A stretch of DNA of 63,979 nucleotides, the filler included, from Stramenopiles sp. TOSAG23-2 (taxonomy: Eukaryota): assembly GCA_900128395.1 (NCBI GenBank). It is 47 parts of 47 records of this genome, joined end to end, with 100 filler letters (N's around TTAATTAATTAA, not from the genome) between each part and the next. Parts side by side here need not be neighbours in the genome. Positions count along the whole stretch, not along the records: positions 55,053 to 56,243 come from LT653517.1; 46 more parts are not named here. One strand, given 5' to 3'. The notes beneath the pieces are model-generated. The model made no database searches. It was given only the letters and a program-made list of their open reading frames with translations, and was not told where the DNA came from. The translations under genes were made by a program, and so were the position numbers. Below, piece by piece: positions 432 through 62,535 of this stretch (the first letter of the stretch is position 1; each line of letters starts with the position of its first letter).

Positions 432-1778
432 ATGAGCAATATACACCCATTAAATATTACCGTCATGCGTTTGTTTAAACCAAAATTATTAGTAGATCCA
501 CCACCAATATCGGAAATGTATACAACAATTGGGGAACATGATACGAGTGGGCCGTTAACAAGTATGCTTGCGTTGCCTGAAACACCTGGGGATACGTATT
601 TAGGACAAAAATTTTCTGCATACGTGCGTGCAACAAATATGACAACACGGCCTATCAAAAATGTAAAGGTTACCGTCGAGATGCATACACCATCCACACG
701 AATATCATTATTGGATAAACGTATCATACAGATGGATACAAATAGTAGCAACGGGACGGATGGTCCAAAAAATCAAAGTTTAGCATTAAATTTAGACGAA
801 GGTGTTGATATACGAGTAGAACATTTATTGACTGAATTGGACGTCCATCGACTACAGGTAACTGTCACATATACACACCCAGACAAAGGGGAGCCAGTTG
901 AAATAGTCAAACTATACCCAGTGAAAGTCATGCGACCAATAAATGTTACTTTACGTTCACGGGAAAAAAAATTAGATGGTGAAAATAATTTAAATGTTTT
1001 TGTAGAATGTGCGTTAAAAAATTTAACGTCTTCCTCCATTGTTTTACATAGTGTTAATTTTATTTGCAAATCGGGATACAAAGCGATTGATTTAGCAAGC
1101 GGTACATGTGTAGAGCAGCATTGCAGTTATCCAGGACAAGAAGATGAAAAAGAGTCGTTTTTAAATAGTAATATACGTTCAATGAATGAATCTGAACGTG
1201 TCGTCCTACGACCAAATAATGTCCAACATTACATATTTCATGTATCTTCCATAAAAAATGAACCATCATCTAATAATGTAAACAATAACGCACCAAAGAA
1301 ACCACCAAAATCTGCGATTGCAGGGAAAAAAATTGAATTAGGTCGCTTGTTGATGATGTGGCGCACAAGTATGGGAGAATCTGCAAGTTTACAAACTGCA
1401 CCTGTATTTGTTGCAAGCCCTGGCACGATGGATGTTACTTTGAATATTAAAAAAGTAGCAAATAATATAGTTGTAAATAAACCATTTACAATAGATTTTT
1501 CAATTGTAAATAATGCATCAAGAGATTTAAATCTACAAGTACTATGGAACAATAGTAATAATAATGGAGACGGTAATATGAATACAAAGCCATTTGGTGT
1601 ACTTGGTAAATCGACGAAAAATATTGGATGCATAACACCTGGAAGTAAGATCGATTGTTCAGTATCATTTATAGCATATAAAACTGGTTTGTATACATTG
1701 GGCGATATTTTGATCAAAGATATTTTTACCAATAATATTTACAATGTGAAACAAAACAGGAAAATTTTTGTGCCGTAA
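432..1778 (+). CDS. TRAPPC13: Trafficking protein particle complex subunit 13 (DUF974)
   Basis: HPLNITVMRLFKP, LALPETPGDTYLGQKFSAYV and LGRLLMMWRTSMGESASLQT match remembered family motifs. Confidence 0.85.
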   Translation: MSNIHPLNITVMRLFKPKLLVDPPPISEMYTTIGEHDTSGPLTSMLALPETPGDTYLGQKFSAYVRATNMTTRPIKNVKVTVEMHTPSTRISLLDKRIIQMDTNSSNGTDGPKNQSLALNLDEGVDIRVEHLLTELDVHRLQVTVTYTHPDKGEPVEIVKLYPVKVMRPINVTLRSREKKLDGENNLNVFVECALKNLTSSSIVLHSVNFICKSGYKAIDLASGTCVEQHCSYPGQEDEKESFLNSNIRSMNESERVVLRPNNVQHYIFHVSSIKNEPSSNNVNNNAPKKPPKSAIAGKKIELGRLLMMWRTSMGESASLQTAPVFVASPGTMDVTLNIKKVANNIVVNKPFTIDFSIVNNASRDLNLQVLWNNSNNNGDGNMNTKPFGVLGKSTKNIGCITPGSKIDCSVSFIAYKTGLYTLGDILIKDIFTNNIYNVKQNRKIFVP

Positions 1779-2578: not shown

Positions 2579-3925
2579 TTACGGCACAAAAATTTTCCTG
2601 TTTTGTTTCACATTGTAAATATTATTGGTAAAAATATCTTTGATCAAAATATCGCCCAATGTATACAAACCAGTTTTATATGCTATAAATGATACTGAAC
2701 AATCGATCTTACTTCCAGGTGTTATGCATCCAATATTTTTCGTCGATTTACCAAGTACACCAAATGGCTTTGTATTCATATTACCGTCTCCATTATTATT
2801 ACTATTGTTCCATAGTACTTGTAGATTTAAATCTCTTGATGCATTATTTACAATTGAAAAATCTATTGTAAATGGTTTATTTACAACTATATTATTTGCT
2901 ACTTTTTTAATATTCAAAGTAACATCCATCGTGCCAGGGCTTGCAACAAATACAGGTGCAGTTTGTAAACTTGCAGATTCTCCCATACTTGTGCGCCACA
3001 TCATCAACAAGCGACCTAATTCAATTTTTTTCCCTGCAATCGCAGATTTTGGTGGTTTCTTTGGTGCGTTATTGTTTACATTATTAGATGATGGTTCATT
3101 TTTTATGGAAGATACATGAAATATGTAATGTTGGACATTATTTGGTCGTAGGACGACACGTTCAGATTCATTCATTGAACGTATATTACTATTTAAAAAC
3201 GACTCTTTTTCATCTTCTTGTCCTGGATAACTGCAATGCTGCTCTACACATGTACCGCTTGCTAAATCAATCGCTTTGTATCCCGATTTGCAAATAAAAT
3301 TAACACTATGTAAAACAATGGAGGAAGACGTTAAATTTTTTAACGCACATTCTACAAAAACATTTAAATTATTTTCACCATCTAATTTTTTTTCCCGTGA
3401 ACGTAAAGTAACATTTATTGGTCGCATGACTTTCACTGGGTATAGTTTGACTATTTCAACTGGCTCCCCTTTGTCTGGGTGTGTATATGTGACAGTTACC
3501 TGTAGTCGATGGACGTCCAATTCAGTCAATAAATGTTCTACTCGTATATCAACACCTTCGTCTAAATTTAATGCTAAACTTTGATTTTTTGGACCATCCG
3601 TCCCGTTGCTACTATTTGTATCCATCTGTATGATACGTTTATCCAATAATGATATTCGTGTGGATGGTGTATGCATCTCGACGGTAACCTTTACATTTTT
3701 GATAGGCCGTGTTGTCATATTTGTTGCACGCACGTATGCAGAAAATTTTTGTCCTAAATACGTATCCCCAGGTGTTTCAGGCAACGCAAGCATACTTGTT
3801 AACGGCCCACTCGTATCATGTTCCCCAATTGTTGTATACATTTCCGATATTGGTGGTGGATCTACTAATAATTTTGGTTTAAACAAACGCATGACGGTAA
3901 TATTTAATGGGTGTATATTGCTCAT
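2579..3925 (-). CDS. TRAPPC13: Mirror copy of TRAPPC13
   Basis: Same 448-aa translation as 432..1778. Confidence 0.8.
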   Translation of the reverse strand: MSNIHPLNITVMRLFKPKLLVDPPPISEMYTTIGEHDTSGPLTSMLALPETPGDTYLGQKFSAYVRATNMTTRPIKNVKVTVEMHTPSTRISLLDKRIIQMDTNSSNGTDGPKNQSLALNLDEGVDIRVEHLLTELDVHRLQVTVTYTHPDKGEPVEIVKLYPVKVMRPINVTLRSREKKLDGENNLNVFVECALKNLTSSSIVLHSVNFICKSGYKAIDLASGTCVEQHCSYPGQEDEKESFLNSNIRSMNESERVVLRPNNVQHYIFHVSSIKNEPSSNNVNNNAPKKPPKSAIAGKKIELGRLLMMWRTSMGESASLQTAPVFVASPGTMDVTLNIKKVANNIVVNKPFTIDFSIVNNASRDLNLQVLWNNSNNNGDGNMNTKPFGVLGKSTKNIGCITPGSKIDCSVSFIAYKTGLYTLGDILIKDIFTNNIYNVKQNRKIFVP

Positions 3926-4456: not shown

Positions 4457-4641
4457 TGATGTCTACCTGCTAATCAAAAATACATGTAGTGCAAAAATGA
4501 AAAGCATGTGTATATCATTAGACGAGCAAATTGTCATAACACAAATGTAATCAGATTTCAAGGGTTGAGTGTGGTGTTCAAGTATGAATTAACATAGGTT
4601 ATTTTATTACCATTAGTGTACTCCACGCCGTAAAGATTTTT

Positions 4642-4874
4642 GTGAGTCAAAATTGATACATCTGTGCACATCTATTAAAACGACTCACACAAAGAAAAAA
4701 TGTCAACAAGATTTTCGTGAGTCAAATCTGATACATCTATAAGAACGACTCACAAAAATTTAAAAATTATTAAACATGTTCAGATGTTATAGTTGGTATA
4801 CAAAATTTAAAAATAGATGTAACCGATGCCAAATTTCGTGAGTCAAATATACATCTTCTATAAGAACGACTCAC
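4642..4874. repeat. Three palindromic units GTGAGTC...CTAT...GACTCAC (47, 37 and 37 nt)
   Basis: Units at 4642-4688, 4717-4753 and 4838-4874. Confidence 0.9.
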
Positions 4875-5093
4875 AAAAAAAGAAACTAGTTTTAGAAGAA
4901 AGGTAATTTTATGCATCTATCATAGTAAATAATTTTTTTAATTCAAAAATCGCTAAAAGTCCCTGACGATTCCCTGGACTCCCTAGCTGGTGATGACATC
5001 GGCTAAAATACCCATATGCATATTGCATCAATTTGTTCGTATATTCTAAGCATATTCTTATGTTTTTATAACCAAAATAATGATATTAAAATT

Positions 5094-5522
5094 ATGTCTA
5101 CCAGCCGCGCATATATCCAAAAAAGCAAAACCAACTATTGGGGAACTCCCACGCACATCCTAGACCAATACAGAGGATGGTTCGACCCGTGTCCATTTCC
5201 TAAACCAGAGTGGGATGGCTTAACCCTGAATTGGCTCTCGCACGACAAAATATTTTGCAACCCACCTTACAATAATCTCAAGGCATGGTCAAGAAAATGC
5301 TACGAGACGCTGACGCAAGCGAAAAGGTACAACCAACCTGTGGAGATTCATCTGTTGATTCCAGTCCGCACGGATACCGCCTACTTTCATGATTATATTT
5401 CTCCATATGCAACGCTTCACTTTATCAGGGGGCGCTTAAAATTCCGTGATTTAACGGGAGTATCAAAGAAACCCACCAATGCGACATTTCCTAGCATGGT
5501 GTGCGTTTATCAACACGTGTGA
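5094..5522 (+). CDS. Phage/virus-type DNA N6-adenine methyltransferase (T1 Dam-like family)
   Basis: W.TP, FDPCP, DGL...W, IFCNPPY, LLIPVRTDTAYFH and FIRGRLKF motifs; intronless; likely start ATG 5094. Confidence 0.88.
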   Translation: MSTSRAYIQKSKTNYWGTPTHILDQYRGWFDPCPFPKPEWDGLTLNWLSHDKIFCNPPYNNLKAWSRKCYETLTQAKRYNQPVEIHLLIPVRTDTAYFHDYISPYATLHFIRGRLKFRDLTGVSKKPTNATFPSMVCVYQHV

Positions 5523-5570
5523 GGAGAGTAAAACAAGCTAAAATGAAATATATTTTATATTTATCCAATT

Positions 5571-5659
5571 TTACAACCTCTCGCCACTATTCCCATACTC
5601 GTCTTGAAGCAGGCTTCTTCTTCTAGCATTACTACCACATGGTTTGCTATTTGGTTCGT
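5571..5659 (-). CDS. 3' end of an unknown gene (...RRRSLLQDEYGNSGERL*)
   Basis: Same peptide LLQDEYGNSGERL* at 55430-55471 with only synonymous changes. Confidence 0.5.
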
Positions 5660-10677: not shown

Positions 10678-12585
10678 TTGCGTATCATTACTACGGCCGA
10701 AGACAACAGAAACAGAATTAAAGCCACCAGAATCGATTTTAAAATGCCTAACTTGTAAAGAAATGATATGGATTAGTGCTGTTAATGCGGATCATCAATA
10801 TGAAATAGATAAAACCGTAGTCACAGAAACAAATTTGGTGAGTCTTATTGGCAATGCTTGCAAATATAGCNNNNNNNNNNNNNNNNNNNNNNNNNNNNNN
10901 NNNNNNNNNNNNNNTTAATTAATTAANNNNNNNNNNNNNNNNNNNNNNNNNNNNNNNNNNNNNNNNNNNNAAGAATCAAATAATATATTATATCTCACAA
11001 ACTAAGATTTCTAGAGATATTAAATTAAATTAATAACAATTATTTTAATAATTTGATTGATTTCAAAAAAAAAAATTAAATTCTTTTAAGAAAATGTAAT
11101 AATAATATATATATATATATATATATCTACGTGTTAAGAAATTATGACTATATATATATATATATAAATGTATAAATTGTGTGATATGTATTCGATATAT
11201 CTAATTATTTCTATAGTTTGCCATGTCCCTGCAGCCTGTATAGATGGATCTATGGATCTATATTTTGATGAAGTTTCGACGTACGAAGAACTTTTTTTTA
11301 GCGAGCGCCGCCCTTCGCTGTTGTTGTTGATGAAGATCCAGGAGAATACTATTATATTATACTTTAAAATAATAAATCCCTATCAAATAATCATCAAGGC
11401 CCGCGCGTTCATATGATCTCTAGATTCTAGATCATGCTTCATACTTCATACACTAGTTATTCTAGTGCTATTGCATATTGCATGCCAGGCGCCAGGGATG
11501 CTATTTTATTCGGCTCGGTCGGATCACAGTAGTCGTCTAGACTATATACTGTCTACTGTATCGCAGTGCTATACAGGACAGCCTGGACAGCCTAGCTAGA
11601 GCTTAAGCTATTAATAGCTAGAGCTATAGCCTGGCTAGAGCTTAAGCTACTGTAAGCTCTAGCTGGCCCAGCTGGCCCAGAAGTTGGACGTAATTCTGAC
11701 AGCAGTAGCAGTAGCAGCAGCAGTATATAGTGATGGCAACAGTAGTGACAGCAGCAGCAGTGGTAGTAGTAGTGATGACAGCGATGATTATGATGGTGCA
11801 GCTATTGGTAGTGAACACAATAAAACATAAAAATATACTTTTCGTCTCGCTGGTAAATCTTTGGGGAATAATGCATTTACTTTGTATACGTACTCTCTAT
11901 ATCAATTATATTAAATTCATATTCGTATTTTATTTTTACTTTTGTTCAAATTTTAATGTTTCTTATATATTATTATATCTATACGAACATTGTAATTATC
12001 CAAAATTGTGTCTCTCTCCATATGTATCCTTCGGTACACGTGTACAGCAGGATATTGTGTACGAAATGTTGCTATCTCGTCGTTAAAAATCAATCATCCC
12101 CATCATCATCATAATCCTTTGGTTCTTGTGGTTCTAAATCTTCACCATATTGTATACAATGAAGGCAATCATNNNNNNNNNNNNNNNNNNNNNNNNNNNN
12201 NNNNNNNNNNNNNNNNTTAATTAATTAANNNNNNNNNNNNNNNNNNNNNNNNNNNNNNNNNNNNNNNNNNNNAGAGACGAATCGCAATTTATGAAAATGA
12301 GATCCCTTAAAACTGCCAGTTTTCCCGAGGATATAGGCACTTTTTTTTGATCAAATACGAAAACATGCTACGAAAACATGCTATCATATTTCATGTATTG
12401 ATTGTATATTAATAAGTAAGTAAAGTGATCAAATACGAAAACATGCTAAATAATTATATTTCATGTATTGATTGCATTTTACTTACTAAGTAAAGTGAAT
12501 GAGATGAACTACGTTTGGTCAATTTTGGTGAAGATGAGAATTGCCCTGATTGCTCTAGATTCTAAATGTCACCTACAATGGTATG

Positions 12586-38567: not shown

Positions 38568-39302
38568 TTATTTTTTGAGCATATCGTCTCTTTTGCAGCA
38601 GTATCTCCCTCCACATGGCAAATTCCCTGGTTTGTTGAATATGGTATGAAACCCACCCCGGTTGTGATAGCGGCAGATCCGTGAATAACGTCCCTTTCCG
38701 CCAACTTGGTGGTCATTCGTTTCATCCCAGCCCCAACCATCGCCGTTCATCTTTTGAGGACCAACATGGGAAGGTTGATCTCCCCATCCAACTTGGTGGT
38801 CATTCGTTTCATCCCAGAACCAACCATCGCCGTTCGGCTTTTGAGGACCAACATGGGAAGGTTGATCTCCCCATCCAACTTGGTGGTCATTCGTTTCATC
38901 CCAGCCCCAACCATCGCCGTTCATCTTTTGAGGACCAACATGGGAAGGTTGATCTCCCCATCCAACTTGGTGGTCATTCGTTTCATCCCAGCCCCAACCA
39001 TCGCCGTTCGGCTTTTGAGGACCAACATGGGAAGGTTGATCTCCCCATCCAACTTGGTGGTCATTCGTATCAAATTTCCATGCATAACCATCATTCCAGT
39101 CTCTTTGGCGCTTTGTAAACTGTTTCGTTGCGGATTTCAATGTGATCAGTCTTCTGTTTGATCTGTTCTTGATTTTTCTTTTTGTGAAAAGCGAACGCTT
39201 TGTTGGTTCCCTACGCAACCTTCTACGGCCATGAAGTCTTGCTTCTGAAAATGCAGCAATGGCTAATACGGAAACAAGAAGTATTAAAAATTTGCTTAAC
39301 AT
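38568..39302 (-). CDS. Secreted prepro-protein with four 29-aa W/G/D/H-rich repeats
   Basis: Signal peptide MLSKFLILLVSVLAIAAFSEA; basic pro-region; 87-nt tandem repeats at about 38700-39068. Confidence 0.75.
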   Translation of the reverse strand: MLSKFLILLVSVLAIAAFSEARLHGRRRLRREPTKRSLFTKRKIKNRSNRRLITLKSATKQFTKRQRDWNDGYAWKFDTNDHQVGWGDQPSHVGPQKPNGDGWGWDETNDHQVGWGDQPSHVGPQKMNGDGWGWDETNDHQVGWGDQPSHVGPQKPNGDGWFWDETNDHQVGWGDQPSHVGPQKMNGDGWGWDETNDHQVGGKGRYSRICRYHNRGGFHTIFNKPGNLPCGGRYCCKRDDMLKK

Positions 39303-39843
39303 GTTTTGTATTTTAATCTTTTTAATATAATAATATAATAAACTATAATGTTCGTTTATATATAAAGAGAGTAATTGGAGTAATGCAACTAATAACTTCA
39401 ACTATATTGTATATTGTATATATACAAGAGTAGGANNNNNNNNNNNNNNNNNNNNNNNNNNNNNNNNNNNNNNNNNNNNTTAATTAATTAANNNNNNNNN
39501 NNNNNNNNNNNNNNNNNNNNNNNNNNNNNNNNNNNTTTGAGATGTTAATAAACGGGAGGAAAAGAATTTTATATAACATATGAGTAAGAGAAAAACACAT
39601 ATATTGAGTTTTTTTTTTTTTTATATTTTTATACGGGACACCAGATAAAAAAAATACACAAAAATGTACCCCATATAAACCAAATTTTCAAAAAGAAAAA
39701 AAGTACGACGTACAAGAGTGTGTCAATTTTAAATTTTTATTGACCACACGTAAATAAAATCTTGTGTGTAATGCGTCTAAAATCTGGAAAAAGCAATGTA
39801 CACAAATACACACACACACACATCTTCTCCCTATACTCCACCC

Positions 39844-54677: not shown

Positions 54678-54952
54678 TTACACGTTAATTATCACAATCT
54701 CTGACGATTCTTTGGACTTGTTCATACCATAACTCCAACTCGTTGGTACCAGTGTGTAATCTTTATATAAATCCTTGATGTAATCACAGTTATTATACGT
54801 CAATACCCAACTCTTGCGTTTCGACAAACATTCGAACAATTTGACGTGATCAAAAGACTCGTGAAGATCACCATTATTACCATACAATTTCGAGTCCTTT
54901 CCCAAGTAATATGGCGGATCCAAAAATAATAGACAATTGCCTAGTGTACCCG
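54678..54952 (-). CDS. Dam/D12-class DNA adenine methyltransferase, C-terminal part, NCLDV-like
   Basis: LFLDPPYY..., FDH..L, W.LTYN...I..LY, W.YGM and EI.I. Confidence 0.85.
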
Positions 54953-55429
54953 NNNNNNNNNNNNNNNNNNNNNNNNNNNNNNNNNNNNNNNNNNNNTTAA
55001 TTAATTAANNNNNNNNNNNNNNNNNNNNNNNNNNNNNNNNNNNNNNNNNNNNTAGGATAGGGGATTGTATATGTAATCGTACTTAGAGTATACAATGAGG
55101 AAGGAATGTATTAAATGAATCGCAAAAAAAAAAAGAGGACAACTAGACTAATAAATTCGAAATAAATGCACACTCAGCACAGCACAATAAAAAAAATGAA
55201 TAATAATGATACCAGGTACTAGGCACCTACCACCTGGTGGTAGTAATTAGAGTAATATAAAATAAGCCATAATAATTCGAATAATAATATAACTAAAAAT
55301 AATAATAATAATAATTACATGTATATTATGAAGGATGCACATGCATCATCTACATCGCCCGCCACGCTTTACAAAACACAAAACACATTTATTAGATACC
55401 TGCACATTTATTTATCATCGTTGCAACGC

Positions 55430-56243
55430 TTACTCCAAGACGAGTATGGAAATAGTGGGGAGAGGTTGTAAAATTTTTCATATTTCATTAGCTTGTTACT
55501 TGTTAACAAATAAAATATTTAAACTCTCTAGACCAAAATATTTTTGGTTCACTTAATATGACAATTCTCTATAAGAAATAAGTGCACCTTGAAATATATA
55601 TAAATTAAGTTTGGGAGGAAATGATTATAGGCGCCGTCAAATTTTGCTCCAACAGTTGCTGCAGTTCATGACCTTCATCAATACTATGAAAAAAGTTTTG
55701 GGAGTAAATGAATATAGGAGCTGATTTTTTTTGCTCCAAAAGTAAAAACATGATGTTATTGTTGTATGTAACATAAGAAAAAGATTGGGAGTAAATGAAT
55801 ATAGGAGCTAAAAAATTTTGCTCCAAATTTCTGGTTCAGTTAATTTACACATTCTCTATAAGAAATAAGTGAACCATAAATTATCTAAAAGTTTTGGAGT
55901 AAATGAATATAGGAGCTGAATTTTTTTGCTCCAAAAATCTTGACGGCGTATAGTATAGTCATTGTAATAAATAACCTATGTAAATTCATACTTGAACACC
56001 ACATATGAAGAATAATATTTTGTGATAGAATAGGAGTAAATGAATATAGGAGCTTAATTTTTTTGCTCCAAAAATCTTGACGGCGTGGAGTACACTAATG
56101 GTAATAAAATAACCTATGTAAATTCATACTTGAACATCACACTCACCCTCGAAATCTGATTTCATTTGTCCTATGGCAAATCGCGCGTCTAATGCTAAAC
56201 ACATGTTTTTCATTTTTGCACTATTAGCAGGTAGACATTATTT
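55430..56243. mobile_element. Variant 2 of the element at 4457-5659, lacking the MTase
   Basis: Block B (55430-55500) and block A (56069-56240) in the same order as the reverse complement of contig 2. Confidence 0.65.
55614..56069. repeat. Five 37-nt palindromic repeats GGAGTAAATGAATATAGGAGCT...TTTTGCTCC with 50/50/71/100-nt spacers
   Basis: 55614-50 (degenerate), 55701-37, 55788-824, 55896-932 and 56033-69. Confidence 0.9.
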
Positions 56244-62147: not shown

Positions 62148-62535
62148 TTTTTCATCGAAGGTTGAGTTTATAGTGCTGTGATCATGCTATTGTACGATAG
62201 GATGATCACAGCAGGTGTTTTTCATCGAATGTTGAGTGTATAGTGCTGTGATCATGCTATTGTACGATAGCATGATCACAGCAGGTGTTATAAAATTGAA
62301 AGATTAAACGGTGCATAGCATTGTAATCTATATTTGATAGCGATTTTTAATAGATTTAGTATATAATAAGTGCATATGTCACCTCCTCACAGACAAGGTT
62401 TATAATGCTGTGATCATGCTATTATAGGGAAAGCACCATCACAGCAGGTGTTATATAAAATTGAAATATTCTTTATTTGATAGCAGTTTTTAATAGATTT
62501 AGTATATAAAAAGTACAATATGTCACTCCTCACAG
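62148..62535. repeat. Tandem units containing a 17-bp-stem hairpin
   Basis: tgctgtgatcatgctat-tgtacg-atagcatgatcacagca at 62174 and 62244, degenerate copy at 62406. Confidence 0.85.

Follow-up and report, generated by a model that had tools for sequence, protein, structure and literature searches.

Clusters of miniature inverted-repeat transposable elements (MITEs), foldback elements and sub-terminal repeat arrays are multi-copy, non-coding inverted-repeat DNAs that lie in gene flanks and untranslated regions (UTRs), contain short sub-repeats and are remodelled by recombination. In repetitive extragenic palindromes (REP) and bacterial interspersed mosaic elements (BIME), as at IS200/IS605 ends, Helitron 3' hairpins and integron attC sites, folded single-stranded DNA is recognised by enzymes, and in the transferrin-receptor mRNA five iron-responsive elements with a conserved loop and free stems lie in the 3'-UTR. 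Here we describe an array of 37- and 43-nucleotide (nt) palindromic modules at positions 55546–56069 of a 63,979-nt stretch of DNA (the window), which joins 47 contigs of the assembly of Stramenopiles sp. TOSAG23-2 (GCA_900128395.1). The array belongs to the dispersed palindromic repeat arrays, a known kind, and its geometry of conserved loop and free stem is unusual in a eukaryote. Such arrays are present in multiple copies, stand in differing gene contexts, have gained and lost units and have one geometry in common. We tentatively favour, with a confidence that stays somewhat short of even, the idea that the array is the variable part of a composite, dispersed, multi-copy non-coding repeat of no proven function, whose modules are remodelled by recombination.

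REP/BIME elements are described as imperfect palindromes of 20–40 nt that often lie behind genes, form composite arrays and depend on structure more than on arm sequence (PMC2817692, PMC3733652). Like these elements (and REPINs), the present modules are short (37–43 nt) imperfect palindromes, high in copy number, extragenic and clustered in two orientations with variable linkers; they differ in that the GTAG/CGTC tag is not found, units starting instead with GTGAG, GGAG or GGTTC and carrying their conserved letters in the loop, and in their eukaryotic host, their long conserved 23-nt loop and their restriction to arrays attached to a larger block. We know of no RAYT-type gene for the present modules. 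They fall below the usual size of MITEs, no autonomous partner was identified, neither terminal inverted repeats with a target-site duplication nor dispersed solo copies were found, and the interior is conserved while the arms are free, the reverse of transposase-bound terminal repeats. In Mimiviridae, transcripts are cut and polyadenylated at hairpins, and a point of likeness is that palindromes unrelated in sequence lie directly behind the genes of a genome rich in AT (PMC4402537); the present contigs, in contrast, are cellular, show no enrichment of hairpins behind 34 open reading frames (ORFs), and repeat the module up to seven times per locus with short stems and a long conserved loop. 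Iron-responsive elements are similar in that several copies of one hairpin type share a 3' region, with a conserved loop and stems that differ but pair, and dissimilar in that here one module type is inverted, truncated copies occur and the cassette is common to unrelated genes. Finally, clustered regularly interspaced short palindromic repeats (CRISPR) share with the array a repeat of ~37 nt, partial dyad symmetry and interleaved unlike sequence, but their uniform spacers of ~30–40 nt are replaced here by irregular and partly repeat-derived spacers between mixed repeat types; the proteins of the window and of four related metagenome contigs (below) are eukaryotic, and no cas context was seen on the 1.2-kb contig, on which no Cas-aimed profile search was run. 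We found no eukaryotic description of such modules in the literature on palindromic repeats or stem-loops of UTRs or on REP/RAYT, although this is a thin basis.

Layout of the array and its further copies

The array is carried by a 1191-base contig at 55053–56243 (LT653517.1). As the initial annotation of this DNA had proposed, five units of 37 nt start at 55614, 55701, 55788, 55896 and 56033 (at most 3 mismatches; five matches against none in 100 shuffles) and are separated by spacers of 50, 50, 71 and 100 nt, and a third unit type of 43 nt is interleaved in the opposite orientation, its two copies (55546–55588 and 55833–55875) belonging to a repeat family of 79% identity over 67 nt. No tandem array was detected at this site with Tandem Repeats Finder, so the layout is truly one of repeats and unlike spacers. 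The 37-nt units of this contig are called V2 below, those of a paralogous contig V1, and the 43-nt units T3. The parts of the contig are as follows, L083 being one of the metagenome contigs.

55428–55471, plus strand: block A, in which the coding sequence of a gene family closes with its final 14 codons (..QDEYGNSGERL*) and a TAA stop; it matches the end of a 1125-amino-acid (aa) ORF in L083 at 92% identity
55472–55545, plus strand: 74-nt stretch from the stop to the first hairpin, common to L083, with AATAAA at 55509–55514, a possible poly(A) signal
55546–55588, minus strand: module T3a, 43 nt, 10-bp arms with one mismatch and a 23-nt loop, TATAG read on the minus strand
55614–55650, plus strand: module V2.1, 37 nt, a sub-type with GGCGCC in the loop, fold not significant (z +0.3)
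55701–55737, plus strand: module V2.2, 37 nt
55788–55824, plus strand: module V2.3, 37 nt
55833–55875, minus strand: module T3b, 43 nt
55896–55932, plus strand: module V2.4, 37 nt, with a perfect outer stem of 8 bp (TTTTGGAG/CTCCAAAA)
55933–56003, plus strand: partial duplicate of the start of the downstream block, within a 137-nt duplication (55896–56003 / 56033–56141, 92%)
56033–56069, plus strand: module V2.5, 37 nt, the final unit, adjoining the constant flank AAAAATCTTGACGGCG
56070–56243, plus strand: conserved non-coding downstream block, cut by the contig end

A second window contig, 4457–5659, is a reverse-orientation paralogue of this one, so that arrays occur on 2 of the 47 contigs. 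The two paralogues share block A (93% over 43 nt) and the sequence past the last unit (90% over 166 nt).

5567–5609, minus strand: copy of block A
5016–5522, plus strand: ORF of a Dam-type N6-adenine DNA methyltransferase (Pfam PF05869, E 1.1e-10), apparently intact and of a phage-like kind
4642–4874, minus strand: V1 array of three modules with arms GTGAGTC..GACTCAC, at 4838–4874 (37 nt), 4717–4753 (37 nt) and 4642–4688 (47 nt)
4457–4641, minus strand: copy of the downstream block following the V1 array

The earlier statement that the V1 units are also 37 nt long is therefore right for two of the three and wrong for the 47-nt third.

A 22-nt word taken from the downstream flank was searched for in metagenome contigs and matched four named ones, L081 to L084. 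The arrays of L081, L083 and L084 are co-linear with those of the window, and L082 retains only a decayed hairpin and an adjoining fragment of flank. When the six sequences were scanned without gaps, 21 units came to light, distributed over five sequences (7, 2, 2, 5 and 5), with none in L082; every one of the 21 is 37 or 43 nt long, and each type keeps a single orientation relative to the flanks. In L083 and L084 the gaps between units are 8–85 nt and the three repeat types alternate. Since L083 mixes all three (in the order T3, V2, T3, V1, V1), V1, V2 and T3 are one system and not properties of particular loci.

The sequence upstream of the arrays differs from locus to locus:

Window contig 55053–56243: stop of block A, 74 nt from stop to first unit
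L083: 1125-aa ORF, 75 nt from stop to first unit
L081: an unrelated 387-aa ORF, 44 nt from stop to first unit
L084: an open frame, Kelch-like by eye, 0 nt, the TGA stop lying within the first unit
Window contig 4457–5659: the methyltransferase ORF intervenes on the other strand, and a stop-to-unit gap does not apply

In four of the five loci, then, arrays start 0–75 nt past the stops of four different plus-strand frames. Block A, which the initial annotation had taken for a leader-like element, is in L083 the last codons and stop of the uninterrupted 1125-aa ORF, that is, the C-terminal coding end of a protein whose start resembles a signal peptide (by eye), which has Cys-rich repeats and matches an ephrin-receptor-like Pfam family at threshold. 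The right end of every array is one and the same flank (AAAATCTTGACGGCG...), whichever unit type comes last, and the same downstream block follows the array in all five loci over 0.2–0.66 kb; it is 90% identical between L083 and L084 over 660 nt and has an internal deletion in L081. No conserved ORF was found in this block, nor a conserved RNA fold (RNAalifold: one compensatory pair of 40; covariation term +2.28).

Copies are numerous, and they differ in the number of their units. In two marine DNA runs, 115 and 145 contigs match the 1.2-kb contig at 85–100% identity, 46 and 42 of which fit it only partly. The initial annotation had suggested looking for gain and loss of spacers, and gain and loss of units is seen in several forms. 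One set of metagenome joins skips 93–97 nt, the length of one V2 unit with its spacer; a join 56002->56145, found in one DNA run and one RNA run, skips the 142 nt that correspond to the 137-nt duplication of the last unit and flank, so copies without the duplication exist; and another form returns from T3b to the end of V2.2, with 38 other bases in between. L084 holds 2.4 tandem copies (92%) of a 108-nt composite V2+T3 unit, and the window paralogue has one V1 unit that L083 lacks, a 75-nt piece bounded by a direct AAAATCTT repeat. The start of spacer 1 of the window array resembles the truncated second T3 of L083, and at least some spacers are thus decayed modules. The inverted likeness that had been reported between spacer 2 and a V1 spacer is weak, its score being reached by 8 of 500 shuffles as the best of 16 comparisons. 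No solo modules were detected by a covariance model run with filters off over 90,832 bases, which returned the 21 training units (E <=5e-6), the 47-nt variant (E 0.17) and otherwise only matches with E of at least 1.

A few smaller observations concern the surroundings of the modules. The interior of V2.1 at 55632–55645 (CGCCGTCAAATTTT) is an inverted complement (86%) of the start of the downstream flank (AAATCTTGACGGCG) at 55935–55948 and 56072–56085, so the array is bracketed by a 14-nt inverted repeat. A Helitron-like CTAA stands behind T3b and the T3 units of L084 and L081, and not behind T3a or the T3 units of L083. Ahead of block A, metagenome contigs diverge in large number just before 55428, and because none of those listed bridges the junction 55427/55428, this junction may be chimeric. 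The element of ~95 nt at 55333–55427 has by far the greatest metagenome depth (up to 618) and recurs at 1648–1740 of L081, where the 387-aa ORF starts ~90 nt further downstream; possibly it is a promoter-side repeat.

Geometry, pairing and folding of the modules

With 5 flanking bases added to the 37-nt types, and 2 to the 43-nt type after reverse complementation, all 21 units from the five loci align without gaps in 47 columns. For a proposed structure in which a 12-bp stem closes a loop of 23 nt, standard pairs occupy 81.7% of the stem cells against 57.0% (sd 2.6) in shuffles, a control that ignores kinship among the units. Two-sided changes occur at 11 of the 12 stem pairs, and at 0.618 the covariation score exceeds both the value in shuffles (0.202) and the values obtained on sliding the partner by 1–3 columns (0.09–0.23); copies within a type are near-identical paralogues, and these figures therefore represent only three independent stems or lineages. 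The constancy of length and arm pairing proposed from the window thus extends to further copies, while the selection on palindromy proposed with it is suggested, not proven, by three independent arm types.

The V2 arms are short, GGAG/CTCC, or a stem of 7 bp (GGAGTAA/TTGCTCC) if one G.T and two A-T pairs are included, and they close a 23-nt loop, as does the stem of V1, and the T3 stem is 10 bp long, its loop also measuring 23 nt. The expected common position of the core in both 37-nt types was borne out: TATAG stands at unit positions 13–17, or loop positions 6–10, and the same loop is found reversed in the 43-nt type. The family as a whole can be defined by three features, a stem no shorter than 7 bp, a loop of 23 nt and a TATAG core at loop positions 6–10; the 47-nt variant departs from this, as do the first unit of L081, which has lost its 5' arm, and three T3 units with a TTAAG or TATGG core. 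Flanking sequence is rich in T to the left of the units and in A to their right, which extends the palindrome and provides no direct repeats at the unit ends. Arms and loops compare between types as follows:

V1 and V2: arms identical at 2 of 14 positions, loops at 14 of 23; loop score reached by 129 of 20,000 shuffles
V1 and reverse-complemented T3: arms 2 of 14, loops 14 of 23; 96 of 20,000 shuffles
T3 and V2: arms 5 of 14, loops 9 of 23; 6,302 of 20,000 shuffles, not significant

The arms thus differ between types (2–5 of 14 identical) while continuing to pair, as first described.

Folded as single-stranded RNA, V1 forms clearly stable hairpins (-16.3 and -19.0 kcal/mol; z -4.6 and -5.1), V2 folds no better than shuffles (z -1.7/-2.5 for the two strands; +0.3/+0.4 for the first unit), and the T3 fold is marginal (z -0.7 and -1.65). 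A larger hairpin of 136 nt formed by T3b with halves of V2.3 and V2.4 (z -5.5) was considered and set aside, since it is not kept in L084 (z +0.3). Hairpins are not a general feature of gene ends in the window: in a crude test on a small sample of 34 ORFs of at least 150 codons ending inside their contig, the best 60-nt fold was -12.95 kcal/mol in the 200 nt past the stop and -12.92 kcal/mol in the last 200 coding nt.

Readings of the arrays

If the array is indeed the variable part of a dispersed repeat, it would have been copied as DNA, together with its conserved block of 0.2–0.66 kb, into the 3' flanks of unrelated genes in a nuclear genome, and V1, V2 and T3 would be sub-families of one ancestral unit with a 7–10-bp stem, a 23-nt loop and TATAG at loop positions 6–10. 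Each module being an inverted repeat, its neighbours are homologous to it in direct as well as inverted orientation, and through this homology arrays could grow, shrink and be reshuffled by unequal crossing-over, tandem duplication and deletion. The wholesale replacement of stems would, we infer, come about by re-creation of complementarity at the DNA level, through intrastrand templated repair or replication template switching at quasi-palindromes, a process that one study describes as creating and maintaining hairpins (10.1101/2021.04.15.439925). Such replacement is possibly helped by selection that favours a hairpin on the TATAG-reading strand, and we do not suppose that a protein recognises the arm sequence; re-created complementarity and selection for the TATAG-strand fold may be two non-exclusive answers.

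A number of observations sit uneasily with remodelling alone. Three unrelated arm types keep register, a 23-nt loop and a near-invariant TATAG, which is present in 18 of 21 units (T and G invariant; A, T and A each at least 90%) and looks like constraint. Arms diverge far more than loops, a pattern that plain neutral decay does not explain. The RNA fold is better on the TATAG-reading strand in 19 of 20 distinct units, which for T3 is the opposite genomic strand, and the recurrent non-Watson-Crick stem pairs of V1 and V2 are G.T (16 cells) rather than A.C (1 cell), although the G.T cells stem from two alignment columns and a T/G-rich strand folds better anyway; together these hint at a strand-specific folded form of the modules. 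Array sequence is also present in contigs of two RNA libraries (8 from an oligo-dT library and 13 from a metatranscriptome), including a 134-nt piece across V2.3 and T3b with no differences. Neither a target-site duplication nor a transposase was seen, which leaves the class of mobile element without identification, and the sole feature like a terminal repeat is a 16-nt inverted repeat of L081. Moreover, all copies form one paralogous family, so their orientation and order are not independent observations. The inverted repeat of L081 (26–41 and 1971–1986; 15 of 16 positions complementary) encloses the 387-aa gene, the array and the block and may mark the termini of a larger mobile unit; a 12-nt word of it occurs as two direct copies at the block end in L083 (3402–3413 and 3446–3457).

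Several of these points would be expected if the modules instead acted in cis as RNA hairpins, within the 3' regions of transcripts from the genes upstream, their loop (..UCUUAUAGA..) being read by an RNA-binding protein or processing enzyme with effects on 3'-end formation, termination or mRNA stability; inverted T3 modules would then serve antisense or convergent transcripts. We consider this explanation rather unlikely overall. It would account for arrays that begin so close behind plus-strand stops in four of five loci, for loops that are conserved while stems are swapped, for the strand bias of fold and of G.T pairs, and for array sequence in both of the RNA libraries, several pieces of which are joined to other, partly coding-looking sequence, and hairpin-directed polyadenylation is described for Mimiviridae (PMC4402537). 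However, the RNA-library contigs are assembled and show presence in a library, not strand, ends or transcription; stretches of the array contig that the RNA runs leave uncovered are given no weight; one variant among them (joint 55874->55729) lacks a complementary 5' arm (by eye); and AATAAA, 32 nt before the first hairpin, could put the poly(A) site ahead of the array. The units of the window array fold weakly, no general hairpin signal exists behind the 34 ORFs, truncated units persist (the first unit and the T3 of L081, and spacer 1 of the window), and the array of contig 4457–5659 lies upstream of, and antisense to, its nearest gene. Nor are units better conserved than their surroundings: close paralogues show 6 differences in 154 unit positions and 25 in 435 spacer, UTR and flank positions, a count that comes from the two of four pairs that align cleanly, the other two, which misalign in the spacers, being omitted.

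A broader proposal, to which we give a low probability, is that the modules are the eukaryotic counterpart of structure-recognised hairpin elements, in which the TATAG-strand fold, as RNA or DNA, would be read by a putative loop-binding protein that ignores stem sequence, and the arrays would determine where transcripts end or how stable they are, or would promote recombination. If this were true, unrelated genes of an abundant marine protist, among them a family encoding large secreted Cys-rich proteins with a conserved C-terminus, would have the cassette as a transferable '3'-end module', and a functional fold would make it a new cis-element, of fixed loop and free stem, common to unrelated protist genes; almost nothing is known of 3'-end formation and mobile DNA in this protist lineage. 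If the arrays are only remodelled repeat DNA, as we tentatively favour, their value is descriptive, namely a clear case of stems replaced wholesale with loop and geometry kept.

It also seems improbable, and a little more so, that the modules are folded single-stranded DNA sites for a structure-specific enzyme (an HUH/Y1 transposase, a rolling-circle enzyme or a recombinase) that spreads or rearranges them. Retention of structure and loop with arm sequence left free, together with the strand preference of the fold, would suit such sites, and the occurrence of both orientations in one array, in extragenic positions behind genes and at high copy, fits what is reported of REP/BIME elements (PMC2817692, PMC3733652). 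No such enzyme turned up, a genome-wide search not having been made, and the modules occur only in arrays adjoining the block, with no solo modules, no target-site duplications and no GTAG or CGTC tag at the unit ends. REP/RAYT systems and integrons are, moreover, bacterial, and the hairpins of Helitrons are GC-rich and short-looped, against a 23-nt loop here.

We regard as very improbable that the array is an artefact of single-cell amplification or assembly with chimeric inverted joins, or else a region coding for a short repeated peptide. The first contig of the window does hold a TRAPPC13-like 448-aa ORF in two inverted copies (432–1778, plus strand; 2579–3925, minus strand), as amplification chimeras do; this pair is probably an amplification or assembly chimera, as would fit a single-cell assembly, and the junction 55427/55428 is likewise unsupported by the sequencing runs. 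The four metagenome contigs, which are independent, nevertheless carry the same modules in the same order relative to their flanks, as do many contigs from the two DNA runs. As for coding, a minus-strand frame of 73 aa is open across units 1–3, and the periods there (87, 87 and 108 nt) are divisible by three, but neither the 137-nt period nor those of the V1 array keep the frame, and V1 and T3 share no reading frame with V2; the short frames were not searched against protein families.

An adaptive array of CRISPR type, towards which the repeat-spacer wording of the initial annotation leaned, is excluded despite the superficial likeness of 37-nt repeats with partly palindromic ends and unlike spacers, since the contigs are eukaryotic, the spacers measure 50, 50, 71 and 100 nt here and 8–84 nt in other copies (8–100 nt in all), a single array can mix three repeat types, spacer 1 consists of a decayed, truncated module, and 22–24-nt words from the two of four spacers searched in IMG/VR have no exact match, an insensitive kind of search. 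As remodelled repeat DNA, the array would also be a warning against reading repeat-spacer patterns in fragmentary single-cell assemblies as CRISPR-like.

The host, the window and minor observations

The window (1–63979) consists of one contig of 4.4 kb and 46 of ~1.2 kb in falling order of length, joined through N44-TTAATTAATTAA-N44 linkers; as a length-sorted concatenation it does not make adjoining contigs genomic neighbours. Its GC content is ~30%, and its ORFs include N-/Q-rich proteins, TRAPPC13, malate dehydrogenase (placed by an atlas look-up as 'eukaryote-like' only) and reverse transcriptase, the last a fragment (PF00078; 20536–21132, minus strand) of a retroelement in the same genome. 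Parts of the window are present in 20 of 23 listed public runs, labelled almost all as marine or seawater metagenomes. This distribution and the eukaryotic gene content identify the host, as far as sequence can, as an uncultured AT-rich marine eukaryote, and it is apparently abundant. Genes neighbouring the arrays of L083 and L084 are ordinary cellular ones, among them an Alg9-type mannosyltransferase and a GH10-like ORF (by eye). On the paralogous contig the methyltransferase ORF separates block A from the V1 array and runs on the strand opposite to the array; its nearest relatives in IMG/VR are ~41% identical, and no related array was seen with them, their loci not having been inspected closely.

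Database scans gave no other identity for the modules. Exact words from the V2 unit, the flank (two words) and the T3 unit have no match in IMG/VR, and the T3 unit and the V2-flank junction have none in prokaryotic genomes. The sole IMG/VR match to a V1 word (L085) is a phage-like coding stretch with no hairpin and no match to the covariance model, and was put down to chance. Neither tRNA nor tmRNA genes were found in the window or in L081–L084. No Rfam family was matched at gathering score across the window; on contig 55053–56243 the best sub-threshold match (E 0.084) is to a plant miRNA model, at 23.9 bits against a cut-off of 90, and positions 3300–4600 of L083 match nothing at E <=1. The downstream block appeared by eye to resemble a spliced leader or small nuclear RNA on the minus strand (GGTGAGT and a U-run before a hairpin), an idea rejected because GGTGAGT is not kept in other copies and there is neither conserved covariation by RNAalifold nor an Rfam match. 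Ultra-short introns or introners (GTGAGT..TATAG) were rejected because the units lie outside reading frames and their 3' ends are not AG, and a C/D-box snoRNA because its only support was a sub-threshold match to SNORD69, with 18.5 bits against 37.

Four further features lie elsewhere in the window. A second DNA methyltransferase fragment, of the D12 class (PF02086, E 9.6e-06; 54678–54923, minus strand), stands at the end of an unrelated contig. The ORF at 38568–39401 (minus strand) repeats a tandem unit of ~25 aa (..WGWDETNDHQVGWGDQPSHVGPQK..), and overlapping, GC-richer palindromes of the GCTAGAGCTTAAGC type are clustered in non-coding sequence at 11526–11663. A separate palindrome array at 62174–62446 contains perfect or near-perfect 40-nt hairpins with a 17-bp stem at 62174–62213 and 62244–62283 and a variant hairpin at 62406–62446; ..TATAG precedes its first two copies, and GGTGTT follows all three.

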